Shown piece by piece: positions 10,243-51,833 of a stretch of 55,699 nucleotides of DNA (position 1 is the stretch's first letter; the number at the start of each line of letters is the position of its first letter). The position numbers and the translations under genes were made by a program. The stretch lies in contig JAGBFS010000021.1 of assembly GCA_017936365.1 (NCBI GenBank), positions 1 to 55,699 of the forward strand. The letters run 5' to 3'. This DNA comes from Clostridia bacterium (GTDB taxonomy: Bacteria > Bacillota > Clostridia > Oscillospirales > Acutalibacteraceae). The notes beneath the pieces are model-generated. The model searched no databases. It saw only the letters and a list, made by a program, of their open reading frames with translations, and was not told where the DNA came from.

Positions 10243-11961
10243 ATGCTAAATCAGGTCATCCCTCCCTATGAGGGGAATCAGCCTTTTCTTTACGCCTGTT
10301 ACTGCGCCGAAGATGAGGCATTGGCCTTTCCTATACTTGCAAGAATGTACAACGAGGGTTTCAGGCTCTTTTCAGCCCTCGCTTGCAGAAGCGACCGTCA
10401 CAGCAAAAAGGGCGACAATGACTTCCGCTCGGTTCAGCGTCTTAACGCCAGCTCCAGCGTCATACTTTTCATGTCGCACAATATGCTTGACCGTATCCGC
10501 CGCAGCGACCCGGAAGTTATAACAGCGGTCAAGAGTGCCAGCTTAAGAGTGGTAGTCCAGCTTGACGGCAGCGAACCGTCCGGCGATATCTATGCGCTTT
10601 CGGTTCCCGACCATATCGAATATTCACACGGCAACGATGCCCCATTCTGGCTGTACATCTATAGCTCTGACGCGCTTGAAAAATGCCGCGGCCCCTGGCC
10701 GGAGGAAAGCAAGCGCCTTCGCATGACCGAATCCAATTTTGAAGATGTTTCCGAAGAAGCCCTTTCCGAAGAATACTTCCAGCTTGAAAACATTCTTTCG
10801 GGCAAATCGGCCGCACAACCCCAGAAACAGGAAACCTATATAAACAACGGCGGATATATCATGCCCGTCCCCGACGAATATGTCTATATCCCGCTTGATT
10901 ACACCGGTGATAAGCAATTCGATGAGGTTTTCGGACTTCTCAACAAAGAAGCCGAACACGCTCATGCAGTAGCTACCGCTCCTTTAAAAACCGAATTGCC
11001 GCCGCAGCCGACAGAAGAGTCTTACCCCGAACCAAACTGGGATGCCGCACCGAAGCACCAAATAACAGAAGAACTGCCCCCACCACCGCCTGTTCAGCAG
11101 GATGCACCTGAAATAAAGGCCGACACAATCGTCGATCTGTCCGAGCCTGTTGAGCAAGTCGAGCCCGAATCGGAACCGATAGCGGAAGCATCTCTCTCCC
11201 CCGCCGAAGTGGAGGAAGAAGCCACAACCGAACCCGAAGCCCCGACGTCCGAACCGGAACCGCAGCCGACACCCGCCGCCGAAGAGCCCGCCGTTCTTCC
11301 CGAACCGGAGCCCTTGCCGGAACAAAAAAGCGAACCTGCAAAGCCCTCCAGCGTTCCGGTAATGGTTAAAACCGCATCCCGCCGCCGTGTACGCACAAGC
11401 GTTACTGCGGTAAGACGCACAAAGGTTGCCGCTTCTCACATGACTCTTGAACCCGATTCCTCCGCTCTTATTGAGGCCAACATGAGGGATCGCGCATATC
11501 TGCAAAACTACGCCCGACGGCTTGTAAGAGAAGCTATGGCCGAAACCGTCCCTCTGCTCAAGGCTGAAGCTCTGTCCGCCGTTCAGCCGACCGAACCGGA
11601 GGCTCCGGCAGAAACCAAAAGAAAACACAGCCGCAAACCGACCGCACCTGTACTGCAGGCCGCCGTCGAACCGATCAATATAAATCAACAGCCCGAGCCC
11701 GCCGCAAAAGCATCGGCCGCCGAACCCGCTGCGGAGGATACCGTAAAGGGCCGCAAAAACAAGCATCCCCATTCCAAGGGACTTTCCGGTTTGTTTGCCG
11801 CGCTGAAAGCAAAACGCAGAGAAAAGGATACAACGATTGAAAACGCTCCTGCTACAGTACCCGAACCCGATATCGACGATCTTCTTCCCGAGCCAAAAGA
11901 GGATACCCCTGTTTTGGAGGCCGCCGTTTCAAAATTCATGCGAAAGTCAGCAGGAAAATAA
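10243..11961 (+). CDS. TIR-like N-terminal domain protein with a roughly 400-aa Pro/Glu/Ala-rich low-complexity tail
   Basis: The N-terminus YEGNQPFLYACYCAEDEALAFPILARMYNEGFRLF...VILFMSHNML matches the beta-alpha-beta pattern of bacterial TIR_2 domains. The rest is PE-rich. Confidence 0.55.
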   Translation: MLNQVIPPYEGNQPFLYACYCAEDEALAFPILARMYNEGFRLFSALACRSDRHSKKGDNDFRSVQRLNASSSVILFMSHNMLDRIRRSDPEVITAVKSASLRVVVQLDGSEPSGDIYALSVPDHIEYSHGNDAPFWLYIYSSDALEKCRGPWPEESKRLRMTESNFEDVSEEALSEEYFQLENILSGKSAAQPQKQETYINNGGYIMPVPDEYVYIPLDYTGDKQFDEVFGLLNKEAEHAHAVATAPLKTELPPQPTEESYPEPNWDAAPKHQITEELPPPPPVQQDAPEIKADTIVDLSEPVEQVEPESEPIAEASLSPAEVEEEATTEPEAPTSEPEPQPTPAAEEPAVLPEPEPLPEQKSEPAKPSSVPVMVKTASRRRVRTSVTAVRRTKVAASHMTLEPDSSALIEANMRDRAYLQNYARRLVREAMAETVPLLKAEALSAVQPTEPEAPAETKRKHSRKPTAPVLQAAVEPININQQPEPAAKASAAEPAAEDTVKGRKNKHPHSKGLSGLFAALKAKRREKDTTIENAPATVPEPDIDDLLPEPKEDTPVLEAAVSKFMRKSAGK

Positions 11962-21773: not shown

Positions 21774-21909
21774 TCGCTGATGCTCCCTGCTATGCTCCAT
21801 AACCCATACCGCCGGTATAAGAAACACCATAAAAATTATATTATCGGTAGGTTGAAGAGCATAGCAGCCCGTGCTAAAATTTAAATATAACATCGAAAGG
21901 AAAAAGCTG

Positions 21910-23007
21910 ATGAAAATTAAAATTGCTGAAAATATAAAATCACTACGCAAACAATATTCCTTCACACAGGAACAGCTTGCCGAGGCACTCGGAGTTACAG
22001 TCGGCGCTGTATATAAGTGGGAATCGGGTCAGTCGATGCCTGAGGTAAAGCTGATTATGGAGCTTGCGGATTTGTTTGAAATCTCCATCGATACCCTTTT
22101 GGGTTATGACCGACAGAACGAAAATATCGCAAACAGGATAGCGCGGCTAAAACAGTATATATTCGAAAAGGATTTTGACGAGGCTGTGCTTGAAGCGGAA
22201 AAGGCGCTGAAGAAATATCCCAACAATTTTGAAATAGTCTATGTGGCTGCAATGGCGTATATGTTTAAGTTTTCCGAAGAAAAAGACGAAAAGTCGATGC
22301 TGAAATCCAACGGGCTTTTTCACAGCGCAATTTCACTTCTGTACCAGAATAAGGAAAGCAGCATAAATGAAACAACTATCCGCAACATGATCGCTCTGAA
22401 CCATCTTAACGCAGGACAGACGGAAAAGGGACTTGAGCTTCTGAAACAGAACAACATCTGTGATATAAACAGCGCCCGTATCGGCTTTACATACGCTGTG
22501 ATGAAGCAGCCTCTCAAAGCAAGAACACATCTTTACAACTCTTTCGTGAGTGTTATGAATAACACCATTCATACAATGGGCGGAATGGTCCTTATGTTTG
22601 CTCAGCAGAAAGATGAGTTTTGCATTGATGCCGCAATATGGCTTATGCATTACTTTGACAGTATAAAAGAAGACAAGAGCAGTATCATTTTTATCGACAA
22701 GCTGAAAGCAATTCTTTATGCACAGCTTGCAGTAATGACAGCGGCTTTCGGCAGATATTGTGAAGCAGAAAAATACATCGCTGACGCGTATAATCTTGCC
22801 GTAAAATTCGACGCCGCACCGGTTTACACTACACAGGGCATAAAATTTCTGAAAGGCGAAGACCGGGTGGGGATTTCTCTGGATGGTCTGGGAGAGACTG
22901 CCCTTGACGGAATTGAAAGTTTTATTTTTGCAAATGCCGAACCGTCGCAGTCACTTGACTTTGTAAAAAACAGATTTGAGGAACTGAAAAATGAAGAGGA
23001 AAAGTAA
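21910..23007 (+). CDS. XRE-family HTH regulator with a TPR-like helical C-terminal domain
   Basis: The N-terminus IKSLRK...FTQEQLAE.LGVT..AVYKWESG is a Cro/C1 HTH, followed by about 300 aa of helical repeats. Start moved to ATG 21910 (MKIKIAEN). Confidence 0.78.
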   Translation: MKIKIAENIKSLRKQYSFTQEQLAEALGVTVGAVYKWESGQSMPEVKLIMELADLFEISIDTLLGYDRQNENIANRIARLKQYIFEKDFDEAVLEAEKALKKYPNNFEIVYVAAMAYMFKFSEEKDEKSMLKSNGLFHSAISLLYQNKESSINETTIRNMIALNHLNAGQTEKGLELLKQNNICDINSARIGFTYAVMKQPLKARTHLYNSFVSVMNNTIHTMGGMVLMFAQQKDEFCIDAAIWLMHYFDSIKEDKSSIIFIDKLKAILYAQLAVMTAAFGRYCEAEKYIADAYNLAVKFDAAPVYTTQGIKFLKGEDRVGISLDGLGETALDGIESFIFANAEPSQSLDFVKNRFEELKNEEEK

Positions 23008-23947
23008 AATGGCATCAAAAATTATTATCATCGTTTTAATCGTTCTGTGCGTTCTTCTGCTGATTGCGTTTATCAATCACAGAATAAAAACAGAAAGCGA
23101 AAAGTCACTTCTCAATCCTATAGGTCAGCTTGTGGAGGTCGATGGCAAAAATATGTGCGTTTATACCGAGGGCGAGGGCGAAAAAACACTTGTCTTCCTG
23201 TCGGGCGGCGGCACCCCCTCACCTATCCTTGATTTCAAGTCGCTGTACTCACAGCTGACAGACGAATATAAAATCGCTGTTGTGGAGAAATTCGGCTACG
23301 GTTTCAGCGACGACAGCGACAGAAGCAGAGATATTGATACCATGCTGGAAGATACAAGAAAAGCACTTTCAGAAGCTGGCGTTGAAGCGCCTTATGTTCT
23401 TTGTCCCCATTCATTGTCGGGACTTGAAGCAATATACTGGGCGCAGAAATATCCCGATGAGGTTGAGGCAATAATCGGACTTGATATGGCGGCGCCCGAA
23501 TATTACACCGACCTGCATATCGGCGCAGGGGGCTTGAAACTGAATCAGGTGCTCGGTGAAATGGGTCTTGCACGGCTTGTTTCGGGAAGCGTGAACGTTC
23601 TGTATGAGAACTCGCAGCTCACGGAAAAAGAATTGAGCATTATAAAAGCAATTTACAGCAGACGCTGTGTTTCGGACGCTTTGGTAAACGAAGGAAAAAT
23701 GTGCAGGGAAAATGCAAAAATTATAAGCGAGGGCGGTATGCCGCAGGTTCCCGTGCTTATGTTTATTTCAAACGGCGACGGCATAAATTACGACAAGAAG
23801 GCGTGGGTGGAAACGTCCGTGAGTTATGCCGAAAGCCTTGAAAACGGCGAGTATATACAGCTTGACTGCCCTCACTACATTCATAATTCTGAGTATATGA
23901 GGATTGCCGACGAAATAAAACAGTTTTTGGGAGAAGCAAATGAATAA
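22991..23947 (+). CDS. Membrane-anchored alpha/beta hydrolase
   Basis: N-terminal TM helix, LVFLSGGG oxyanion region, and HSLSG nucleophile elbow. Overlaps the upstream regulator by 17 nt. Confidence 0.78.
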   Translation: MKRKSKMASKIIIIVLIVLCVLLLIAFINHRIKTESEKSLLNPIGQLVEVDGKNMCVYTEGEGEKTLVFLSGGGTPSPILDFKSLYSQLTDEYKIAVVEKFGYGFSDDSDRSRDIDTMLEDTRKALSEAGVEAPYVLCPHSLSGLEAIYWAQKYPDEVEAIIGLDMAAPEYYTDLHIGAGGLKLNQVLGEMGLARLVSGSVNVLYENSQLTEKELSIIKAIYSRRCVSDALVNEGKMCRENAKIISEGGMPQVPVLMFISNGDGINYDKKAWVETSVSYAESLENGEYIQLDCPHYIHNSEYMRIADEIKQFLGEANE

Positions 23948-27096: not shown

Positions 27097-27819
27097 CTAT
27101 TTTATGTAGATTATATCGTTTTCGGCACAATAATCTATTATCGCCTGAAGCTGTGTTTCCGACTCTGCATCTAATAACATTTCGTAAAGCCTGTCAGCAT
27201 ACACTCTGAATTTATCGGCATCATCCGCTACCGTTCCTCCAAAGAGCATATTGTCGCGATAATACTCAAACTTCCTTGCACAGAATTCGGTATAAGCAAC
27301 CATAAACCCGCATTGGGTAAACATGACCTCAAGCTCAGAGGGATCCTCTCCTCGTGCCTCTTTAAAAAGCTGCTCATATTTTGCCATGAACTTATAATCA
27401 TCGGCTTTGCCTTCTGAATTAATAAGATCCGCCATAAGATCTTTAATATTGTCGTTTCGGACATCGGCAACAAGTGCCAAACTTGCGCTGTATACATCAT
27501 TGGAAACGTCGGTTTCGTTGAACTTGCTGCCCATAGCTCCCGGATTCTGGCGGAAGATATATATGACGGTGATAACCACAACCACCATCGCAACAATACC
27601 AACAATAGAACCGGCGGCGATGCCTGCTCTCTTCAGATTTTTCTTTGAATAGAATTTTTCGACCGGTGCAAGCGCTATAAGAGGAACTGTCGTTGATTGA
27701 CTTGCCTCATAACCTCCGGATTGTGCAGATTTATCTACTGCGACTCCGCAGCCGGTGCAAAAATTCGCGTCATCGCGAAATACTTTTCCGCATTTGCTGC
27801 ATGTTGCCACAAGCACCAC
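27097..27819 (-). CDS. Zinc-ribbon membrane protein (start codon uncertain among clustered GTGs at 27819/27816/27810)
   Basis: CSKCGKVF...FCTGCG, one TM helix, helical C-terminal domain. Ends in TAG. Confidence 0.65.
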   Translation of the reverse strand: MVLVATCSKCGKVFRDDANFCTGCGVAVDKSAQSGGYEASQSTTVPLIALAPVEKFYSKKNLKRAGIAAGSIVGIVAMVVVVITVIYIFRQNPGAMGSKFNETDVSNDVYSASLALVADVRNDNIKDLMADLINSEGKADDYKFMAKYEQLFKEARGEDPSELEVMFTQCGFMVAYTEFCARKFEYYRDNMLFGGTVADDADKFRVYADRLYEMLLDAESETQLQAIIDYCAENDIIYIK

Positions 27820-30428: not shown

Positions 30429-31112
30429 TTATTTGTTCTGCGGTAAAACAACCGTCTTTTCAATAACGATCTCGGGACGCTTCTCTGCAGGCTTTTCTGC
30501 CTTTTCCTCTTTTTCTTCCTTCTTTACTTCATTTGTTTCTGCAGGCTTCTGCTCCTGTTTGAAATCATTCTGACGTCTGCCGTTCTTATTCTTTTTGTTT
30601 CTGCCTCGGTTTTTATCGGTACTGTCGATAGCACTTCCATCCTTCATGAGCTGGAGCATGCAGTTGTCCAAAACCTCACGATGATAAATATATCTTGTAA
30701 CATTGCTCATAACCGGGCGTGTCTTGACAACCTCAACACCGTCAACGATGTCATAATACTCCTCTTCCCCAACCTGCTCAAGTGTGGTAAGAGATACAAA
30801 TGAGCCCTGCAGCATACCGTTAACGCGCATATAGTCGAGCTCATTAAGAGATACACCGAGATAATCTGCTGCATCATACTCCGTAAGGAAGCTGAGCATC
30901 GGCTGCTGAAGCGACATCGTCGAGCTGTCTTTTTTGCCGCGGCCAACGGTCATTCCGCTTACCAGAAGGAATGCCGCACCGACAATACTTATGCTTAAAA
31001 TGATAATACCAATAATAAACGCTGCTGTATTCATAATTAATTCAACCATACCTTTCTGCTCATAAATGATTGAGCTCTCAAGATCCGAATCTAACATTTC
31101 ATATGGAATCAA
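30429..31112 (-). CDS. Hypothetical membrane-anchored protein with an excisionase/MerR-like HTH segment and a Lys/Glu-rich tail (start uncertain: 31112 TTG, 31049 or 31034 ATG)
   Basis: One TM helix (AAFIIGIIILSISIVGAAFLLV), then ...EYDAADYLGVSLNELDYMRVNG..., then a KE-rich tail. Confidence 0.6.
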   Translation of the reverse strand: MIPYEMLDSDLESSIIYEQKGMVELIMNTAAFIIGIIILSISIVGAAFLLVSGMTVGRGKKDSSTMSLQQPMLSFLTEYDAADYLGVSLNELDYMRVNGMLQGSFVSLTTLEQVGEEEYYDIVDGVEVVKTRPVMSNVTRYIYHREVLDNCMLQLMKDGSAIDSTDKNRGRNKKNKNGRRQNDFKQEQKPAETNEVKKEEKEEKAEKPAEKRPEIVIEKTVVLPQNK

Positions 31113-31206: not shown

Positions 31207-32532
31207 TCATCCCTGTTGAGATGTCTGTGCCTGATTTTCCTTTATCTCAATATCATTTTCATTACAATAGTCTTTATAGTATTCATAAGCCTCTCTGTAC
31301 ATTCTTTCCTTTGATGTTCTTTCTTCTGCGAGCTCTTCACAGTTTTCCATACACATCAGTACAGCTTTATCTCTATACATTTTTGCCGTTGCTGCACAGG
31401 AACCTCCCTGTTCAATATACAGATCAATAGCAGCCAGCGAGTCGCTGTTTTCATTTATTATTGTTTCCGGTCCTCTGTTTTCAACCCTTTCAAGAGAAGT
31501 TTCAACATTTTTAAATGAATCGAACTTTTCAAGCTCGTTGCACAACACTACGAGTTCAGAGAAAATTTCGTCCTCTCCAATGCAGTATCCTTTTGCAGTA
31601 TTTATATTCCTTTTGCTTAATTTTTCTATACCTATACTTATATATTCAACCGCACTGTTAAAGTTATCGAAATCGCTATTCATACCAGGCTGTGACGGCT
31701 TATCACTATAAAGCCGTTTGATATCGTCAAATGAATAGCCAAGTCCTATAGCCTGCGCAGCTTCATACGAAAGTGTAATTTCTTTACAAGTTGTTATATT
31801 TGCGATTTCTCTGTTTGCGGCACTTCTCAAAATCTCATTGTCCGATCCGCTGTAACTGCGAAGACGGCTGAGTACATCATCAACATCATCATTGATATTC
31901 AATGACGTTTCCGGATATAATATCGACGGCTCACTCAAAGCATATGCAAAGCTTCCGTTGTGATTGCTTCCTCCAAAGAGCTTATCAACATCCATTAATA
32001 CCGCATTGGCTGTATTGTAAAGCTCTAACTCCGCCTTTTTTTCTTCGCTTTCCGTCTCTCCCAACTTTTCTCTCGCTTGCTGGAGATAAGCTTGCGCACC
32101 CTGATAGTCGGAATCGCTTATTTTCTGTATTGCCTGGGCAATATTATGGTCAAACGAAGATCCTTCTGTCTTTCCAATACCGTTCCCATTACCCGATACT
32201 ATGAGCATTATTATAACTATAACCGCAACGATTAAAAATCCGCCAAGCACATATATCATTGCTTTTCCTGTATTCCCTTGCTTTTCTGAATCAGCAGGTC
32301 TGTCCATCATGACCGGCTGCGAACTAAACTGTGCATATTGAGGAGAAGCAGGTGCAGGAATTACTGCCGGCGGTACGACAGGAGCCGGTACTACAGCAGG
32401 CACAGGCTGATTAACCTGAGGCTTTACTGCTGCCGGCTCCGGCTTTTTAAGTATAACCGTGCGTTCCTCTTTATCGCTATCGGGAAGGTTTGTTATTGTT
32501 TCCGTTACTTTGAAAAAAAACTGATTATTCAT
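31207..32532 (-). CDS. Hypothetical single-pass membrane protein (Pro-rich N-terminus, helical C-terminal domain)
   Basis: 441-aa ORF. PAVVPAPVVPPAVIPAP tract, TM helix, long helical ectodomain. Confidence 0.6.
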   Translation of the reverse strand: MNNQFFFKVTETITNLPDSDKEERTVILKKPEPAAVKPQVNQPVPAVVPAPVVPPAVIPAPASPQYAQFSSQPVMMDRPADSEKQGNTGKAMIYVLGGFLIVAVIVIIMLIVSGNGNGIGKTEGSSFDHNIAQAIQKISDSDYQGAQAYLQQAREKLGETESEEKKAELELYNTANAVLMDVDKLFGGSNHNGSFAYALSEPSILYPETSLNINDDVDDVLSRLRSYSGSDNEILRSAANREIANITTCKEITLSYEAAQAIGLGYSFDDIKRLYSDKPSQPGMNSDFDNFNSAVEYISIGIEKLSKRNINTAKGYCIGEDEIFSELVVLCNELEKFDSFKNVETSLERVENRGPETIINENSDSLAAIDLYIEQGGSCAATAKMYRDKAVLMCMENCEELAEERTSKERMYREAYEYYKDYCNENDIEIKENQAQTSQQG

Positions 32533-32665
32533 AGTGTTTTACACCACCTTTTCTTTCGTTACATATCTTTTCCAGCATCTCTTTATTAATATAATATTTT
32601 ACCATATTTCACTATTAATAATCAATAAAAAACTCAATATTGTTTCATTTATATCTCTTCAATTA

Positions 32666-32715
32666 AAAAATCTCCTTTGCTGATGCATAAACCAACATCA
32701 TCAAAAGAGATTTTT
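32666..32715 (-). terminator. Long hairpin terminator after mnmA
   Basis: aaaaatctcctttgctgatg / catcatcaaaagagattttt (2 mismatches), with a T run on the minus strand. Confidence 0.6.
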
Positions 32716-32725
32716 CGTCTATAAT

Positions 32726-33775
32726 TTAGTTTCTTATTACGCGATTTATTATCGCACCGCCAATAAGACGATCCTCATCATAAAATACTGCTGATTGTCC
32801 CGGCGTGATGGCTCTTTGCGGCTCATCAAATATGATTACTGCTTCGTTGCTGTTAATGGTTATCATGGCATCTGCTGCTGCAGCGGCATAACGTGGTTTA
32901 ACCTTTGCCCGAAAAGAACCATCCTTAATGTTTCCATCAATGATGTTAATATCGCTGCATTGTATCTTGCTGCTGTACTGACTTCCCTCCGGGCCAAGAA
33001 TAACATTTCCGTTATCAAACGCTACCACATACATCGGCTGTGACAGACTTATTCCCAAACCCTTTCTCTGTCCAACGGTGTAATTTTCAATACCTTTATG
33101 CATTCCTAAAATATTACCGTTGCTGTCAACAAAATTACCGGGTTGAGAAAAACCACTAAAGTTATCATATAGAAACTTTTTGTAATTACCATCCGGAACA
33201 AAGCATATATCCTGACTGTCTTTCTTTCCGGAGGTCGGAAGACCCGCTTCCTGCGCCAGTTCACGCAGTTCTTCCTTTTCATACCCCCCTATCGGGAATA
33301 AAACATGGGACAGTACTCGCTGTGTAAGCATCCAGAGAACATAGCTCTGATCCTTGTTTTTGTTTGCGCGAAAAATCTGATACTTTCCATCAGCTTCGTT
33401 TTTTATTATTTTTGCATAATGTCCCGTAGCTATATAATCATATCCGTTTTCAAGCGCGTAATCAAGCATTGCACCAAATTTTATATTGCGATTACAGGTT
33501 ATACACGGGTTGGGAGTATTTCCGATTTTATATTGCTCTGCAAATTCTTCTATAACACATGAATAAAACTGCTGTCTTAAATTGAGAATCCTGTGTTCAA
33601 TTCCAAGATGCTCACAAACATAACGCGCGTCTGCAACATCCTGCGATTCTTCTGATGATTGCGGAGAAAGAAGCATCGTTACGCCGCAAACATCATATCC
33701 TTGTCTTTTCAAAAGCAGAGCGGCGGCAGAAGAATCCACGCCGCCGCTCATACCTAACATTACTTTTTTGCTCAC
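32726..33775 (-). CDS. mnmA: tRNA 2-thiouridine(34) synthase MnmA
   Basis: [11 protein letters not shown]-loop, C..C motif, full length. GTG start overlapping the serS stop. Confidence 0.93.
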
Positions 33776-41020: not shown

Positions 41021-42091
41021 TTATTCGCTGTCGTTATTCTCACTGCTCTTCGGCACGGTAATACGTCCGTAAAGCGGAGCTGTTGTATCCTTTTTAGGAT
41101 TTGTGTTAGGCACAGCGGCTGAATTATTATTGCGATATGATGACTTGGAATAATTATTGGAATAGGTCTTTATACCATTCCTATTCTTGTTATATCCACC
41201 GCGATCACGATTATAACCACCTCTGCGGTCTCTGTTGTAACCGCCCTTATTATAACCGCCTCTGCCTCCGCGATTGAAATTAACGGAGAGACCATCCTCG
41301 CCTTCTGCAAGACCGGTGGGTCCTATAACAACATGACGCTTTGCACCTTCATCAACCGACCAGCTTGAAACACCGTCGATCTTCTGAACTGCTGTGTGGA
41401 TAATTCTTCTCTCATAAGGATTCAAAGCTTCAAGAGCAAGATTCTTATTTATCTTCAAAGCTCTTGCAGCAGTTTTCCTTGCGAGATTTTCAAGATAACT
41501 TTCGCGCTTTTCTCTGTAATTTCCAATATTGAGAGAAATTCTGAAATAATCATCATCGCCGTTATTTGCGGCAAGACTTACAAGATACTGAAGAGAAGTC
41601 AAAACTTCGCCTCTTCTGCCGATTATAGTACCGAGTCCTTCGCCGGTCAATTCAAGAACAGCACCATTTTTCTCGTCCGTAGAAGGCTTAACAGCTATGT
41701 TGACCTTCTTCATATCCATACAATCAAGTATTGTTCTGAGATAATCACGGGCTATTATTGCCTGCTTCTGAATCTCTTCAGGCTGTGAAACAGCTTCACT
41801 TGCATCAGCAATTATTTCTGTTTTTTCTTTTTTTTCGACAGACTTTACTTCTTCTTTTTTAACAACAGGCTCTGCTTTTTTGATTTTTTCAACCGGTTTT
41901 TCTTCCGGCTCTTCAATTTCGAAATAAACCCTTACTTTTGCAGGAGCTCCTCCGAAAAGACCGAAAGTTTTGCTTTTGGGGTATTCCAATACCTCCACAC
42001 CGACATCATCGCGTGACACTCCAAGCTCACGGCAGCCTTTTTCAATAGCTTCTTCCGTGGTTGTGCCGGTTACCACGACTTCTTTTAACAC
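41021..42091 (-). CDS. jag: Jag/KhpB-type RNA-binding protein (Jag_N + KH + R3H) with a KE-rich linker and a roughly 90-aa RGG/GYN-rich tail
   Basis: N-terminal Jag_N, GRRGE..SLQYL KH region, PYERRIIH R3H motif. The tail reads GGRGGYNKGGYNRDRRGGYNRDRGGYNKNRN. Confidence 0.85.
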   Translation of the reverse strand: MLKEVVVTGTTTEEAIEKGCRELGVSRDDVGVEVLEYPKSKTFGLFGGAPAKVRVYFEIEEPEEKPVEKIKKAEPVVKKEEVKSVEKKEKTEIIADASEAVSQPEEIQKQAIIARDYLRTILDCMDMKKVNIAVKPSTDEKNGAVLELTGEGLGTIIGRRGEVLTSLQYLVSLAANNGDDDYFRISLNIGNYREKRESYLENLARKTAARALKINKNLALEALNPYERRIIHTAVQKIDGVSSWSVDEGAKRHVVIGPTGLAEGEDGLSVNFNRGGRGGYNKGGYNRDRRGGYNRDRGGYNKNRNGIKTYSNNYSKSSYRNNNSAAVPNTNPKKDTTAPLYGRITVPKSSENNDSE

Positions 42092-43985: not shown

Positions 43986-44120
43986 TTAATAAGAGAGCTT
44001 TTTTCTGCCCTTTGCTCTGCGACGTGCAAGAACCTTGCGGCCATTTTTGGTGGACATTCTCTTTCTGAATCCATGTTCCTTTTTTCTCTGACGCTTCTTC
44101 GGCTGATAAGTTCTAAACAT
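43986..44120 (-). CDS. rpmH: 50S ribosomal protein L34
   Basis: [47 protein letters not shown] at 44120 follows AAGGAG; the track ORF is N-terminally over-extended. Confidence 0.95.
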
Positions 44121-44157
44121 TGTATGCTTCTCCTTTCGCATTACTCTACAGAATAGA

Positions 44158-44186
44158 ATTATATCCGCATCTTGCCAAACTGTCAA
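44158..44186 (-). promoter_or_regulatory. Consensus sigma-A promoter of rpmH-rnpA
   Basis: Minus strand: TTGACA (44186-44181), 17-bp spacer, TATAAT (44163-44158). Confidence 0.7.
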
Positions 44187-44314
44187 CAAATTTTTTTTGT
44201 CACAAAAATTTTATTTTTCTCATAATAAAAGAAAAATCAATATTTGTTGTGCCTTTTGACATAATACAATACAATATTTTGCTAAAAATTTTTTTATCTT
44301 TTTTTATTTTATTG
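44187..44314. other. Extremely AT-rich tract between the divergent rpmH and dnaA promoters (candidate unwinding/oriC-associated region)
   Basis: Almost pure A/T with phased A/T runs. It lies at the point where gene orientation switches. Confidence 0.35.
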
Positions 44315-44343
44315 TTGGAATAAAAGTCTTTATATGCTATAAT
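44315..44343 (+). promoter_or_regulatory. dnaA promoter with extended -10
   Basis: TTGGAA (44315-44320), 17-bp spacer including TGc, TATAAT (44338-44343). Confidence 0.5.
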
Positions 44344-44385
44344 ATTGTAGTTATTATAAATCATTATATAAGGAGCGATTTTCAT

Positions 44386-45693
44386 ATGGATTCCTTCGTC
44401 GATATGTGGAAATTAATTGAGCCCACAATCCATGATGAAATTGGTGAAACAGCATATAACGTCTGGATCAAACCAATGGTTCCGGTTGATCTTACATCCG
44501 AAGAAGCTGTTATGAAGGTACCTTCCGACTTTTATAAAAATGTCATTGAAGGAAGATATAAAAGCAGCATAAAAAATGCCATTCTGACCGTAACCGGTCT
44601 TGATGTTGAAGTTAAAATAATAATTTCCGATGATGTAAAAATAACCGAGACAAAAGAAAAAGATGAGGTTCCCGAAGCTGATGAATATACCTTTGACAGC
44701 TTCGTTGTCGGTTCTACAAACCGCTTTGCACACGCCGCAGCTCAGGCTGTTTCCAACAACCCCGGCAGCGCCTATAATCCCCTTTTTATCTACGGTCCGT
44801 CCGGTATGGGAAAAACACACCTTCTTTTTGCTATATAGGAGCGTATTTTAAAAACCCATCCCGATATGAATATCGTCTATATGAAGGGCGATCAATTTAC
44901 AAACGAGCTGATAGAAGCTCTTAACAAAGACCAGTATCAGCTCATGGCTTTCAGAAAGAAATATCGTTATGCCGATGTTATTTTAATGGACGATATTCAC
45001 TTTATCGCCGGTAAGGAACAGACTCAGGAGGAATTCTTCAACACCTTCAATACCCTTTATCAGGAAAACAAGCAGATCGTTCTGACAAGTGACCGTCCTC
45101 CGAAGGCTATAAAAACTCTTGAAGAAAGACTCCGTACCCGATTTGAAAGCGGACTTCTTGCCGACATTCAGCCGCCTGAGTATGAAACAAGGATAGCAAT
45201 CATCAAGCGCAAAGCTAACCAGTATAACATGGATATGTCCGATGATATAGCCGAATTTATCGCGCTCAAGGTAAAATCGAACATAAGACAGCTTGAAGGC
45301 GTTGTCAAAAAAATAAACATAATGTGCCTTATTGATAAAGAAAAGCCATCCATATCAATTGCACAGAATGCTATCAAGGATATACTCAATGATGTCCAGC
45401 CTCTTCCCCAGACAATAGAAAAAATAACAGAAGAGGTTGCAAGGGCATTCAATGTTCAGCCTCAGGATATCTACTCAAAGAGAAGAACCGCCAATCTTTC
45501 CATCGCCCGTCAGGTTTCCATGTACTGTGTAAGAGAGATAACAGGACTCCCCTACGACGCTATCGGAAGGGAATTTGGCGGCAAGGATCATACAACCGTT
45601 ATCTACGCTGTCCAGCAGATAACCAAAAAGATGAACACCCAATCCGATCTTAAATCAACTATCGACGATATAATAAAAAATATCAAGTCATAG
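44386..45693 (+). pseudogene. dnaA: Chromosomal replication initiator DnaA, interrupted by one in-frame TAG at 44836-44838 (track ORFs 44386-44838 and 44866-45693 share a frame)
   Basis: N-terminal domain I, Walker [15 protein letters not shown], then TAG. The sequence continues collinearly: ERILKTHPDMNIVYMKGDQFTNE..., Walker B ILMDDIHF, sensor and box motifs, and the C-terminal DNA-binding domain (GGKDHTTV). Confidence 0.9.
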
Positions 45694-45919
45694 TTTTCAA
45701 CCATATCAACGTTTATAAACAGTTAAAATACCTTAAAAGCTGTTAATAACTAAAACGGTCATGTTAACAAAAAATATTATCCACTTTTTCAAAGAAAATA
45801 TTAACAGCCTTTATTTGACATTATTCAGGGATAAAATAACATTTTAAACATTTTCAACCGCCTCTAATAATACTACTAAACACTATTAGTTACTCTATTA
45901 GTAAAAAAGGAATGATCTG
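45694..45919. other. dnaA-dnaN intergenic region, a candidate oriC segment. One 8/9 DnaA box TTATCCACT (45777-45785), TTTTCAACC x2 (45694-45702, 45851-45859), CTATTAGT x2 with 12-bp phasing (45883-45902)
   Basis: AT-rich, in the position where Firmicute oriC normally lies. Only one near-consensus DnaA box is visible. Confidence 0.4.
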
Positions 45920-47017
45920 ATGAAGTTTGTATGTGCACAGCAGGAGCTGATGGATACTCTCAATATAGTTTCCAGAGCGGCAGCATCAAAATCAACCCTG
46001 TCCGTAATTCAGAATATTTATTTTGAAGCAAGAAACAACGAGATTTATATATGCTGTTATAACCTTGAAATGGGAATTTCAAAGGTTATATTGGCACAGA
46101 TAAAGGAAAAAGGATCTGCAATCATCCCAATCCGCCTTTGTGATATAGTCAAAAAGCTCTCCGGTGATATGGTTGAGATCGATTGCGACGACAAATACAT
46201 AATAAGCATAAAATCCGGTTTTTCCGAATTCAAGCTTATTGGAACATCTGCGGAAGAATTCCCTGAGCTTCCGGCTATTAATGCCGATTATTCAATCAAT
46301 ATAGATCAGGGTAAGCTTAAATCCATGATAGCCCAGACTGCGTTTGCTATCAGCACAAATGATCAGCGCCCGGTATGTACCGGAGCCCTTTTTGAGGTTG
46401 AAGAGGGTATTTTAAAAATGGTAACGGTCGATGGTTACCGCCTTGCAATAAGAAAGGAACATATCGTATGTGATATAAACTGTTCCTTTATTGTACCCGG
46501 TAAAACCCTTTCCGAGCTTCAGAAGATACTTGCCGATACTAATAAAGAGGACGTAATAATAAACGCGGCAAAAAATAATATCATATTTTCTGTTGGTGGA
46601 TACAGTATTATTTCACGTCTTCTTACAGGTGAATTTATTAATTATAAGAGCGCAATTGCCGGTGAATATATATATGAAACTGCCGTCAGTACTTCCGAAA
46701 TAATAAGAAGTACCGAAAGAATATCTCTTATGATAAATGAGACCTTTAAAATACCGGTCAGATGTGTGTTTACCGATGAAAATATAACATTGAGCTGTGA
46801 TACACCGATAGGTAAAGCGGAAGATGTTATTTCATCACGCGGTAATTGCGACGGTATTGATATGAGCTTTAACAGCAAATATATGCTCGATGCTTTCAGA
46901 GCTGTTGATACAGATGAAATGAAGATACTTATAAGGGAAAAATGCAAATCTGTAAAAATACTTCCGCCTGAAGGCGATTCGTTCCTTTTCATTCTTATGC
47001 CTATAGGGAGAAGATAA
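45920..47017 (+). CDS. dnaN: DNA polymerase III beta sliding clamp
   Basis: 365 aa with three-domain clamp pattern. M.F....EL N-terminus and LMP... C-terminus. Follows dnaA. Confidence 0.95.
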   Translation: MKFVCAQQELMDTLNIVSRAAASKSTLSVIQNIYFEARNNEIYICCYNLEMGISKVILAQIKEKGSAIIPIRLCDIVKKLSGDMVEIDCDDKYIISIKSGFSEFKLIGTSAEEFPELPAINADYSINIDQGKLKSMIAQTAFAISTNDQRPVCTGALFEVEEGILKMVTVDGYRLAIRKEHIVCDINCSFIVPGKTLSELQKILADTNKEDVIINAAKNNIIFSVGGYSIISRLLTGEFINYKSAIAGEYIYETAVSTSEIIRSTERISLMINETFKIPVRCVFTDENITLSCDTPIGKAEDVISSRGNCDGIDMSFNSKYMLDAFRAVDTDEMKILIREKCKSVKILPPEGDSFLFILMPIGRR

Positions 47018-48604: not shown

Positions 48605-51273
<2,669 letters not shown>

Positions 51274-51284
51274 AGGATGATTTT

Positions 51285-51833
51285 ATGAGAGTAATGACAA
51301 ACAGATTTTCAGCAAGTACTGTACTTTTGGAAAATGAATTTTCCGAGCTGCTCGATTCAAAATTTAAATTGTGGCAGGAAAAAAGAATAAGAAATGCTGT
51401 TTTGATTTTAGGTATAGCAGTTTTTATAATTGCAATTCTTATAATCGGTTGGTCGGGATCATTCTGGGCTTGGTTTTCAAGAATTGCTGTTTTGGCAATC
51501 ATTGCAGCGGCCGTAATATTTGGAACAGATCCATTGATAAAATATCTTAAATCATTCATTTTAAAAAGGTCTTTGGAGCTTTCTAAAAATAACGGTGCAA
51601 AGCTTAATTATGGTTTTAACGAGGATAATTTTACAATTGTTTTTGATAATCAGCACAGCATTGTAAATTATTCATCGGTAAAAAATATAACCGAGTCCGA
51701 TAAAAGCTTTGTTATATGGTGTGATGAAAACAGCGGATTTGTAATCAATAAATCAGGATTCAATTTCGGAGAGATATCTGAATTTCCAAAGTTTTTAAAA
51801 GATAAGACAAATAAGGATATAACAGCAATTTAG
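51285..51833 (+). CDS. YcxB-like membrane protein, paralog of the preceding gene
   Basis: Same architecture (two TM helices, then NY.F.ED.FTI...........Y..V..I.E....F). Confidence 0.6.
   Translation: MRVMTNRFSASTVLLENEFSELLDSKFKLWQEKRIRNAVLILGIAVFIIAILIIGWSGSFWAWFSRIAVLAIIAAAVIFGTDPLIKYLKSFILKRSLELSKNNGAKLNYGFNEDNFTIVFDNQHSIVNYSSVKNITESDKSFVIWCDENSGFVINKSGFNFGEISEFPKFLKDKTNKDITAI

Follow-up and report, generated by a model that had tools for sequence, protein, structure and literature searches.

In the laboratory, Escherichia coli dnaA(Am) mutants are kept alive by suppressor tRNAs. The dnaA gene described here resembles these strains in carrying an amber codon within an essential initiator gene, a condition under which a suppressor is needed for viability. 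It differs from them in that no suppressor is in evidence, the allele is unconserved, and the sequence is a natural one derived from a metagenome. The reading of UAG as sense within gut ecosystems is a further point of resemblance, described in TAG-recoded gut phages (PMC10879173, PMC9523058). These phages contain many in-frame TAGs, whereas the window (the whole stretch of 55,699 nucleotides analysed here) belongs to a bacterial chromosome, has a single in-frame TAG and otherwise uses TAG as a normal stop.

Compared with canonical DnaA, as represented by the Bacillus subtilis protein (PDB 8btg), the gene shares the four-domain layout, the Walker A motif (GPSGMGKTH), a length of about 435 aa and the rpmH-dnaA-dnaN synteny of the origin. 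Unlike canonical DnaA, the window copy stops at codon 151, and its clade has Lys, Arg, Gln or Cys where the model DnaAs have Gly. A different kind of comparison is provided by the consensus noise of short-read metagenomes and metagenome-assembled genomes (MAGs). Like such noise, the window shows isolated private changes, mostly non-synonymous, at a rate of about 1-2 in every 10 kb. They also occur in ENA scaffolds of the project labelled XIEF21 but not in Logan contigs, and invariant catalytic residues are among those struck (GyrB E50K in the window, RecF G35R in a scaffold). The TAG departs from such noise in being common to two assemblies, which requires either shared reads or a real allele.

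The dnaA locus and its interrupting codon

The first-pass annotation of this DNA described two ORFs, at 44386-44838 and 44866-45693, lying in the same frame with a TAG at 44836-44838 as their sole interruption. Both the sequence and the ORF check bore this out, and translation through the TAG gave, as had been stated, a DnaA of normal length (435 aa). The locus comprises the following features:

44386..45693, plus strand: dnaA, 435 codons plus stop, with one interruption at codon 151
44836..44838, plus strand: in-frame TAG at codon 151, AAG (Lys) in sister contigs
44386..44838, plus strand: dnaA 5′ ORF of 150 aa, containing domains I-II followed by the first part of the AAA+ domain, up to and including the Walker A helix
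44866..45693, plus strand: dnaA 3′ ORF, 275 aa when counted from its first ATG, containing the remaining AAA+ domain and the DNA-binding domain IV
43986..44120, minus strand: rpmH, upstream neighbour, a 44-aa Ribosomal_L34 protein called in all sister contigs
45950..47017, plus strand: dnaN, downstream neighbour, intact, with its exact 355-aa product in six sister contigs

Apart from codon 151, the dnaA translation is 100% identical to an intact 435-aa protein (P0001), and matches of the read-through protein to DnaA structures in the PDB reached a best E-value of 2.5e-107. In the Pfam search, the 5′ piece matched DnaA_N and positions 4-54 of the Bac_DnaA profile, including the Walker A motif, while the 3′ piece matched Bac_DnaA positions 66-161 and Bac_DnaA_C. 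Together, the two pieces provide all DnaA domains (DnaA_N, the AAA+ domain of Bac_DnaA and the C-terminal DnaA-box-binding HTH). These profile positions confirm that the split separates Walker A from Walker B inside the AAA+ core. The reading frame, broken in the window by the TAG, is whole in 10 sister contigs. A check for possible re-initiation downstream of the TAG revealed an AGGAG at 44837-44841 with no ATG, GTG or TTG at Shine-Dalgarno spacing, the first ATG being 24 nt further on. The damage to the gene consists of this single lesion, and the only other window-private change in dnaA is one synonymous base. No repeated k-mer that might have caused mis-assembly was found around the TAG, and no second dnaA was found within the 55.7-kb window.

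Upstream of dnaA are located rpmH, rnpA, yidD, yidC, jag, mnmE and mnmG, and downstream dnaN, recF, gyrB and gyrA; the rpmH-dnaA-dnaN arrangement is the same in the window and in the sister contigs. The cumulative GC skew reaches its minimum at about 45-46 kb in the window, which, together with the neighbouring genes, identifies this dnaA as the origin-linked copy. The DnaA-box scan detected one box with at most one mismatch (TTATCCACT at 45777) in the dnaA-dnaN spacer (45694-45949) and none in the rpmH-dnaA spacer (44121-44385). The sole perfect box in the scan, TTATCCACA, lies at 41395 inside jag, and the DnaA boxes of the origin may deviate from the consensus. The AT-rich rpmH-dnaA spacer also includes a 61-aa ORF on the minus strand (44200-44385), which was called in every sister contig and matched no family; it is probably a spurious call within the origin/promoter region.

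The first-pass annotation had further argued that TAG is not globally reassigned in this DNA, and the stop codons agree with that view. TAG ends mnmE directly after the CIGK motif (...FCIGK-TAG), dnaA itself, the gene at 27097 and both YcxB-like ORFs. Among 50 long non-overlapping ORFs, the stops were TAA in 31, TGA in 13 and TAG in 6. The dnaA TAG is the sole one in the window to link two open frames that each reach 100 codons. ARAGORN detected no tRNA genes in the window. Folding of the RNA around and downstream of the stop (44806-44925) revealed no unusual structure, with z = -1.07 and 31 of 200 shuffled sequences folding at least as well.

Codon 151 in sister contigs and homologues

A search with the read-through protein retrieved P0001, which has Lys at position 151, and the contigs encoding it (L001-L007) were fetched. 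Across dnaA, L001-L006 differ from the window at 2 bases and L007 at 6. Codon 151 reads AAG in these seven contigs as well as in L010, L017 and L018, which makes ten assemblies, although some SRR and SAMN records among them may represent one biological sample. The ten AAG contigs share 99.2-99.96% nucleotide identity with the window over 2-21 kb. Besides the window, the T at base 44836 is present in a single assembly, a scaffold from sample SAMN15830132, and absent from 10 others, which have A. Two more 435-aa proteins from the same 90%-identity protein cluster (P0121 and P0122) also have K151. A protein-based scan of GTDB-representative contigs, a collection without the species of the window, yielded as nearest genome only the Oscillospiraceae MAG SIG585, with 79% amino acid identity in DnaA and an AGA (Arg) codon at this position. 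When the exact 44-nt context of the TAG was searched with N at the variable base, no match was obtained in the genome-contig or metagenome-contig collections.

Among the 120 closest homologues, the column of codon 151 contains Q in 46, R in 39, C in 18, K in 10, S in 3, and G, A and Y in one each, with no TAG, and it is among the most variable near Walker A. This result qualifies the proposal that the TAG replaces a near-invariant Gly. Gly does occupy the aligned position in the DnaA proteins of B. subtilis (8btg), Thermotoga maritima (2z4r) and Aquifex aeolicus (2hcb), but the column is variable in the closest homologues and the conspecifics encode Lys. The accompanying argument, that no GGN codon can reach TAG by one substitution, fails because the ancestral codon here is AAG and the position varies within the clade; one A-to-T transversion at 44836 is sufficient. 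Inspection of the orthologous codon in sister genomes, as had been recommended, thus returned a sense codon in all ten contigs, the outcome named beforehand as pointing to an assembly error, and at the level of sequence comparison the ancestral state of codon 151 is shown to be AAG (Lys), with a one-step path to TAG. Conservation arguments taken from model organisms, such as the Gly of B. subtilis DnaA, can mislead for a distant clade.

The exact 150-aa truncated DnaA is recorded from only one other contig, the 38.5-kb scaffold_2126 of XIEF21-1_SAMN15830132 (ENA ERZ28654337), labelled L008, L014, L019 and L031 in our analysis. Judging from the label, XIEF21 most plausibly denotes the ruminant gastrointestinal metagenome project of Xie et al. 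2021. That project (PRJNA657455/PRJNA657473) comprised 370 samples sequenced on NovaSeq from PCR-free libraries, with single-sample assemblies by MEGAHIT and IDBA-UD as well as co-assemblies (PMC8199421). Scaffold_2126 shows several defects, including N gaps, a 16-bp deletion adjoining one of these gaps and a 1-bp deletion at window position 21836. It stops inside dnaA at window 45202, and the following scaffold (L029) restarts at 45396.

The other private alleles of the window, at 21955, 30892, 32125-32809, 47392 and 48770, are missing from scaffold_2126, so the two TAG-bearing assemblies are not one consensus. Since it is implausible that random error struck the same base twice independently, either reads were shared, for example through co-assembly, or the T was present in some real molecules. 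Three of the four anomalies in the scaffold (the deletion at 21836, the N gap at 30625 and the break at 45202-45396) lie within 270 bp of window-private sites, and these positions hint that a window-like strain co-occurs in sample SAMN15830132. The haplotype of the window was also sought through proteins with private alleles, namely the 275-aa dnaA fragment, the product of a 441-aa gene and that of the 378-aa HTH gene; none of them is recorded, and the exact 275-aa 3′ product occurs nowhere among the recorded proteins.

Private changes in the window and its sister assemblies

All differences between the window and all sister contigs were tabulated. Outside one recombination-like tract, the isolated window-private changes comprised seven non-synonymous changes, one nonsense change and two synonymous changes, listed here from the sister contigs to the window:

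12728: NadA-like gene, A71V
21955: 378-aa HTH gene, H29Y
30892: 227-aa gene, N74S
32809: mnmA, L323I
37337: gidB, F101S
44836: dnaA, K151 to stop
48770, plus strand: gyrB, E50K (GAA to AAA)
51235: YcxB-like gene, K185E (one comparator only)
45279, plus strand: dnaA Ser298, synonymous (TCG in the window, TCA in the sister contigs; 7 comparators)
47392: recF, synonymous

For random changes in dnaA, 21% of the possible single-base changes would be synonymous and 4% would create stops. The 7:1:2 spectrum matches this expectation, which indicates that the private changes are unselected. Polymorphisms that are common to several samples or clustered (23332-23455, 32125-32209 and 46636-46990) are mostly synonymous, as expected of variation that has passed through selection. 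Compared with about 50 kb of sister sequence, the window contains no Ns and no frameshifting indels.

Two of the clustered regions were characterized individually. In the region 23332-23455, within the ORF at 22991-23947, SNPs are densely packed, the samples show three haplotypes, and most of the differences are synonymous; one sister scaffold begins at 23276, adjoining the block, which looks like a recombination tract. The region 32125-32209 includes six clustered SNPs and a 3-bp indel, all private to the window, with five of the six SNPs synonymous. It is located in a 441-aa gene on the minus strand (31207-32532) with no Pfam match and, in contrast to the isolated singletons, probably reflects genuine variation between strains or recombination.

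In the case of gyrB (48623-50686), codon 50 is AAA (Lys) in the window and GAA (Glu) in two sister contigs. GyrB chains in the PDB have Glu at the equivalent of residue 50, within the motif GLHHLVWEIVDN. This residue is the catalytic base of the ATPase, corresponding to E42 of E. coli GyrB. On sequence grounds, E50K would be a second private change of lethal effect, about 4 kb from the TAG in dnaA.

The ENA scaffolds of the XIEF21 project exhibited private singletons of their own, almost all of them non-synonymous. In sample S102 (SAMN15830102; L010/L020), RecF carries G35R in the Walker A motif GENGQGKT (window 47329) and YidD carries K62E. The private changes of S107 are K318Q, A192S and A158D, and those of S132 (SAMN15830132) are E485A, SerS L73I, YidC Y73D and DnaA L257F. 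The private sites of L008/L031, from the latter sample, are at window positions 11696, 34833, 43027 and 45154, in addition to the 1-bp deletion at 21836. Over about 49 kb, the Logan contigs of this species showed one private singleton, which is synonymous. These observations suggest that the private changes of the XIEF21 scaffolds are assembly-pipeline noise at about 1 per 10 kb. Such a pattern is what unselected noise would leave in a family of assemblies, and it does not fit a living genotype.

Origin of the amber codon and minor features of the window

The TAG is probably an unprogrammed single-base difference, arising either as assembly or sequencing noise or as a captured rare variant, with a working dnaA that reads AAG. 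The working gene of the species would be uninterrupted and would encode Lys151 at a residue-tolerant site just past the Walker A helix. An A-to-T change at 44836 (AAG to TAG) would then have entered a consensus assembled from metagenome data for an uncultured Oscillospiraceae of the ruminant gut. The consensus of the window carries isolated private changes unfiltered by selection, with the amber codon as one example and the loss of the catalytic Glu of GyrB as another. Their likely source would be sequencing or assembly noise, or rare variants from mixed-strain data of modest coverage, and the source data may come from the same project as the other TAG-bearing scaffold.

Assembly or sequencing error had been listed among the options in the first-pass annotation. 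In its favour, AAG is found in ten sister contigs and the TAG is accompanied by unselected private changes, GyrB E50K included, as is also the case in the sister ENA scaffolds; the same T in a second assembly speaks against it, as does the otherwise clean sequence of the window, free of Ns and frameshifting indels. We infer that the T at 44836 is an artefact or a minority allele, and that it is not fixed in a living clone.

It is unlikely, to begin with the alternative that survives best, that the T is a real recent null allele in a minority or heterozygous state, belonging to a co-occurring strain or to some chromosome copies of a polyploid cell and followed by the assembler. The sharing of the TAG by two assemblies would be accounted for in this way, and so would the proximity of three of the four scaffold anomalies to window-private sites. 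However, a dnaA null would be unable to spread in haploid cells, and no recorded assembly shows both alleles.

Less likely still is a viable strain that truly carries the amber allele, in which DnaA would be produced by a suppressor tRNA with a CUA anticodon, encoded by the chromosome or a prophage, or by near-cognate read-through. The residues likely to be inserted (Gln, Lys or Tyr) would be tolerated at the variable position 151, where relatives accept Q, R, C, K, S, G, A and Y, and the TAG does appear in two assemblies that differ elsewhere. Furthermore, UAG suppressor tRNAs are carried by gut phages (PMC10879173, PMC9523058). Against these points, none of the 10 near-identical contigs and none of the relatives has the TAG, no tRNA is found in the window, and five other genes end in TAG at a conserved terminus. 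A GyrB allele without catalytic function accompanies the TAG in the same consensus; because this co-occurring E50K change lies beyond rescue by suppression, noise is favoured over a living genotype. Site-specific amber suppression, which had been proposed as one option for this codon, likewise gains no support from the single occurrence of an in-frame TAG in the window or from the ordinary RNA fold. The broader claim, that an amber allele of dnaA occurs naturally and circulates in an Oscillospiraceae strain of the ruminant gut, where suppression or read-through keeps it viable, for example by a tRNA of a TAG-recoded prophage, is slightly less probable again. If the codon were fixed and translated, dnaA would offer a rare example from nature of an essential initiator dependent on stop-codon suppression; the evidence points against it.

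A decaying pseudogene, with an intact second dnaA doing the work elsewhere in the genome, is very improbable, given the location of this copy at the GC-skew minimum with canonical rpmH-dnaA-dnaN synteny, the single lesion in a protein otherwise identical to intact orthologues, and the lack of any further dnaA in the window. Two more readings, a reassigned TAG (through pyrrolysine or an altered code) and a two-piece DnaA that functions, were rejected as having next to no probability: TAG ends mnmE after CIGK and four other genes with no other in-frame TAG in the window, the plain Lys (AAG) of the conspecific contigs effectively refutes reassignment, and a split product would have its AAA+ core cut between Walker A and Walker B, with no well-placed start codon at Shine-Dalgarno distance after the TAG.

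The original observation on the sequence is thus correct, the reasoning that gave it interest is refuted, and the best description of the codon is an artefact or an unselected variant of a known, ordinary kind. When a genome derived from metagenomes contains a lone in-frame stop, a comparison with conspecific contigs should precede any interpretation as recoding.

Two further features of the window were observed. The genes gyrB and gyrA are usually adjacent; here, two tandem YcxB-like ORFs (50683-51273 and 51285-51833), the first of which is a weak Pfam match, are located between them, and the pair is kept in sister contig L026. The G+C content is 47-51% in the first 19 kb or so, compared with 36-43% around the origin (30000-55699), a marked step within one contig.
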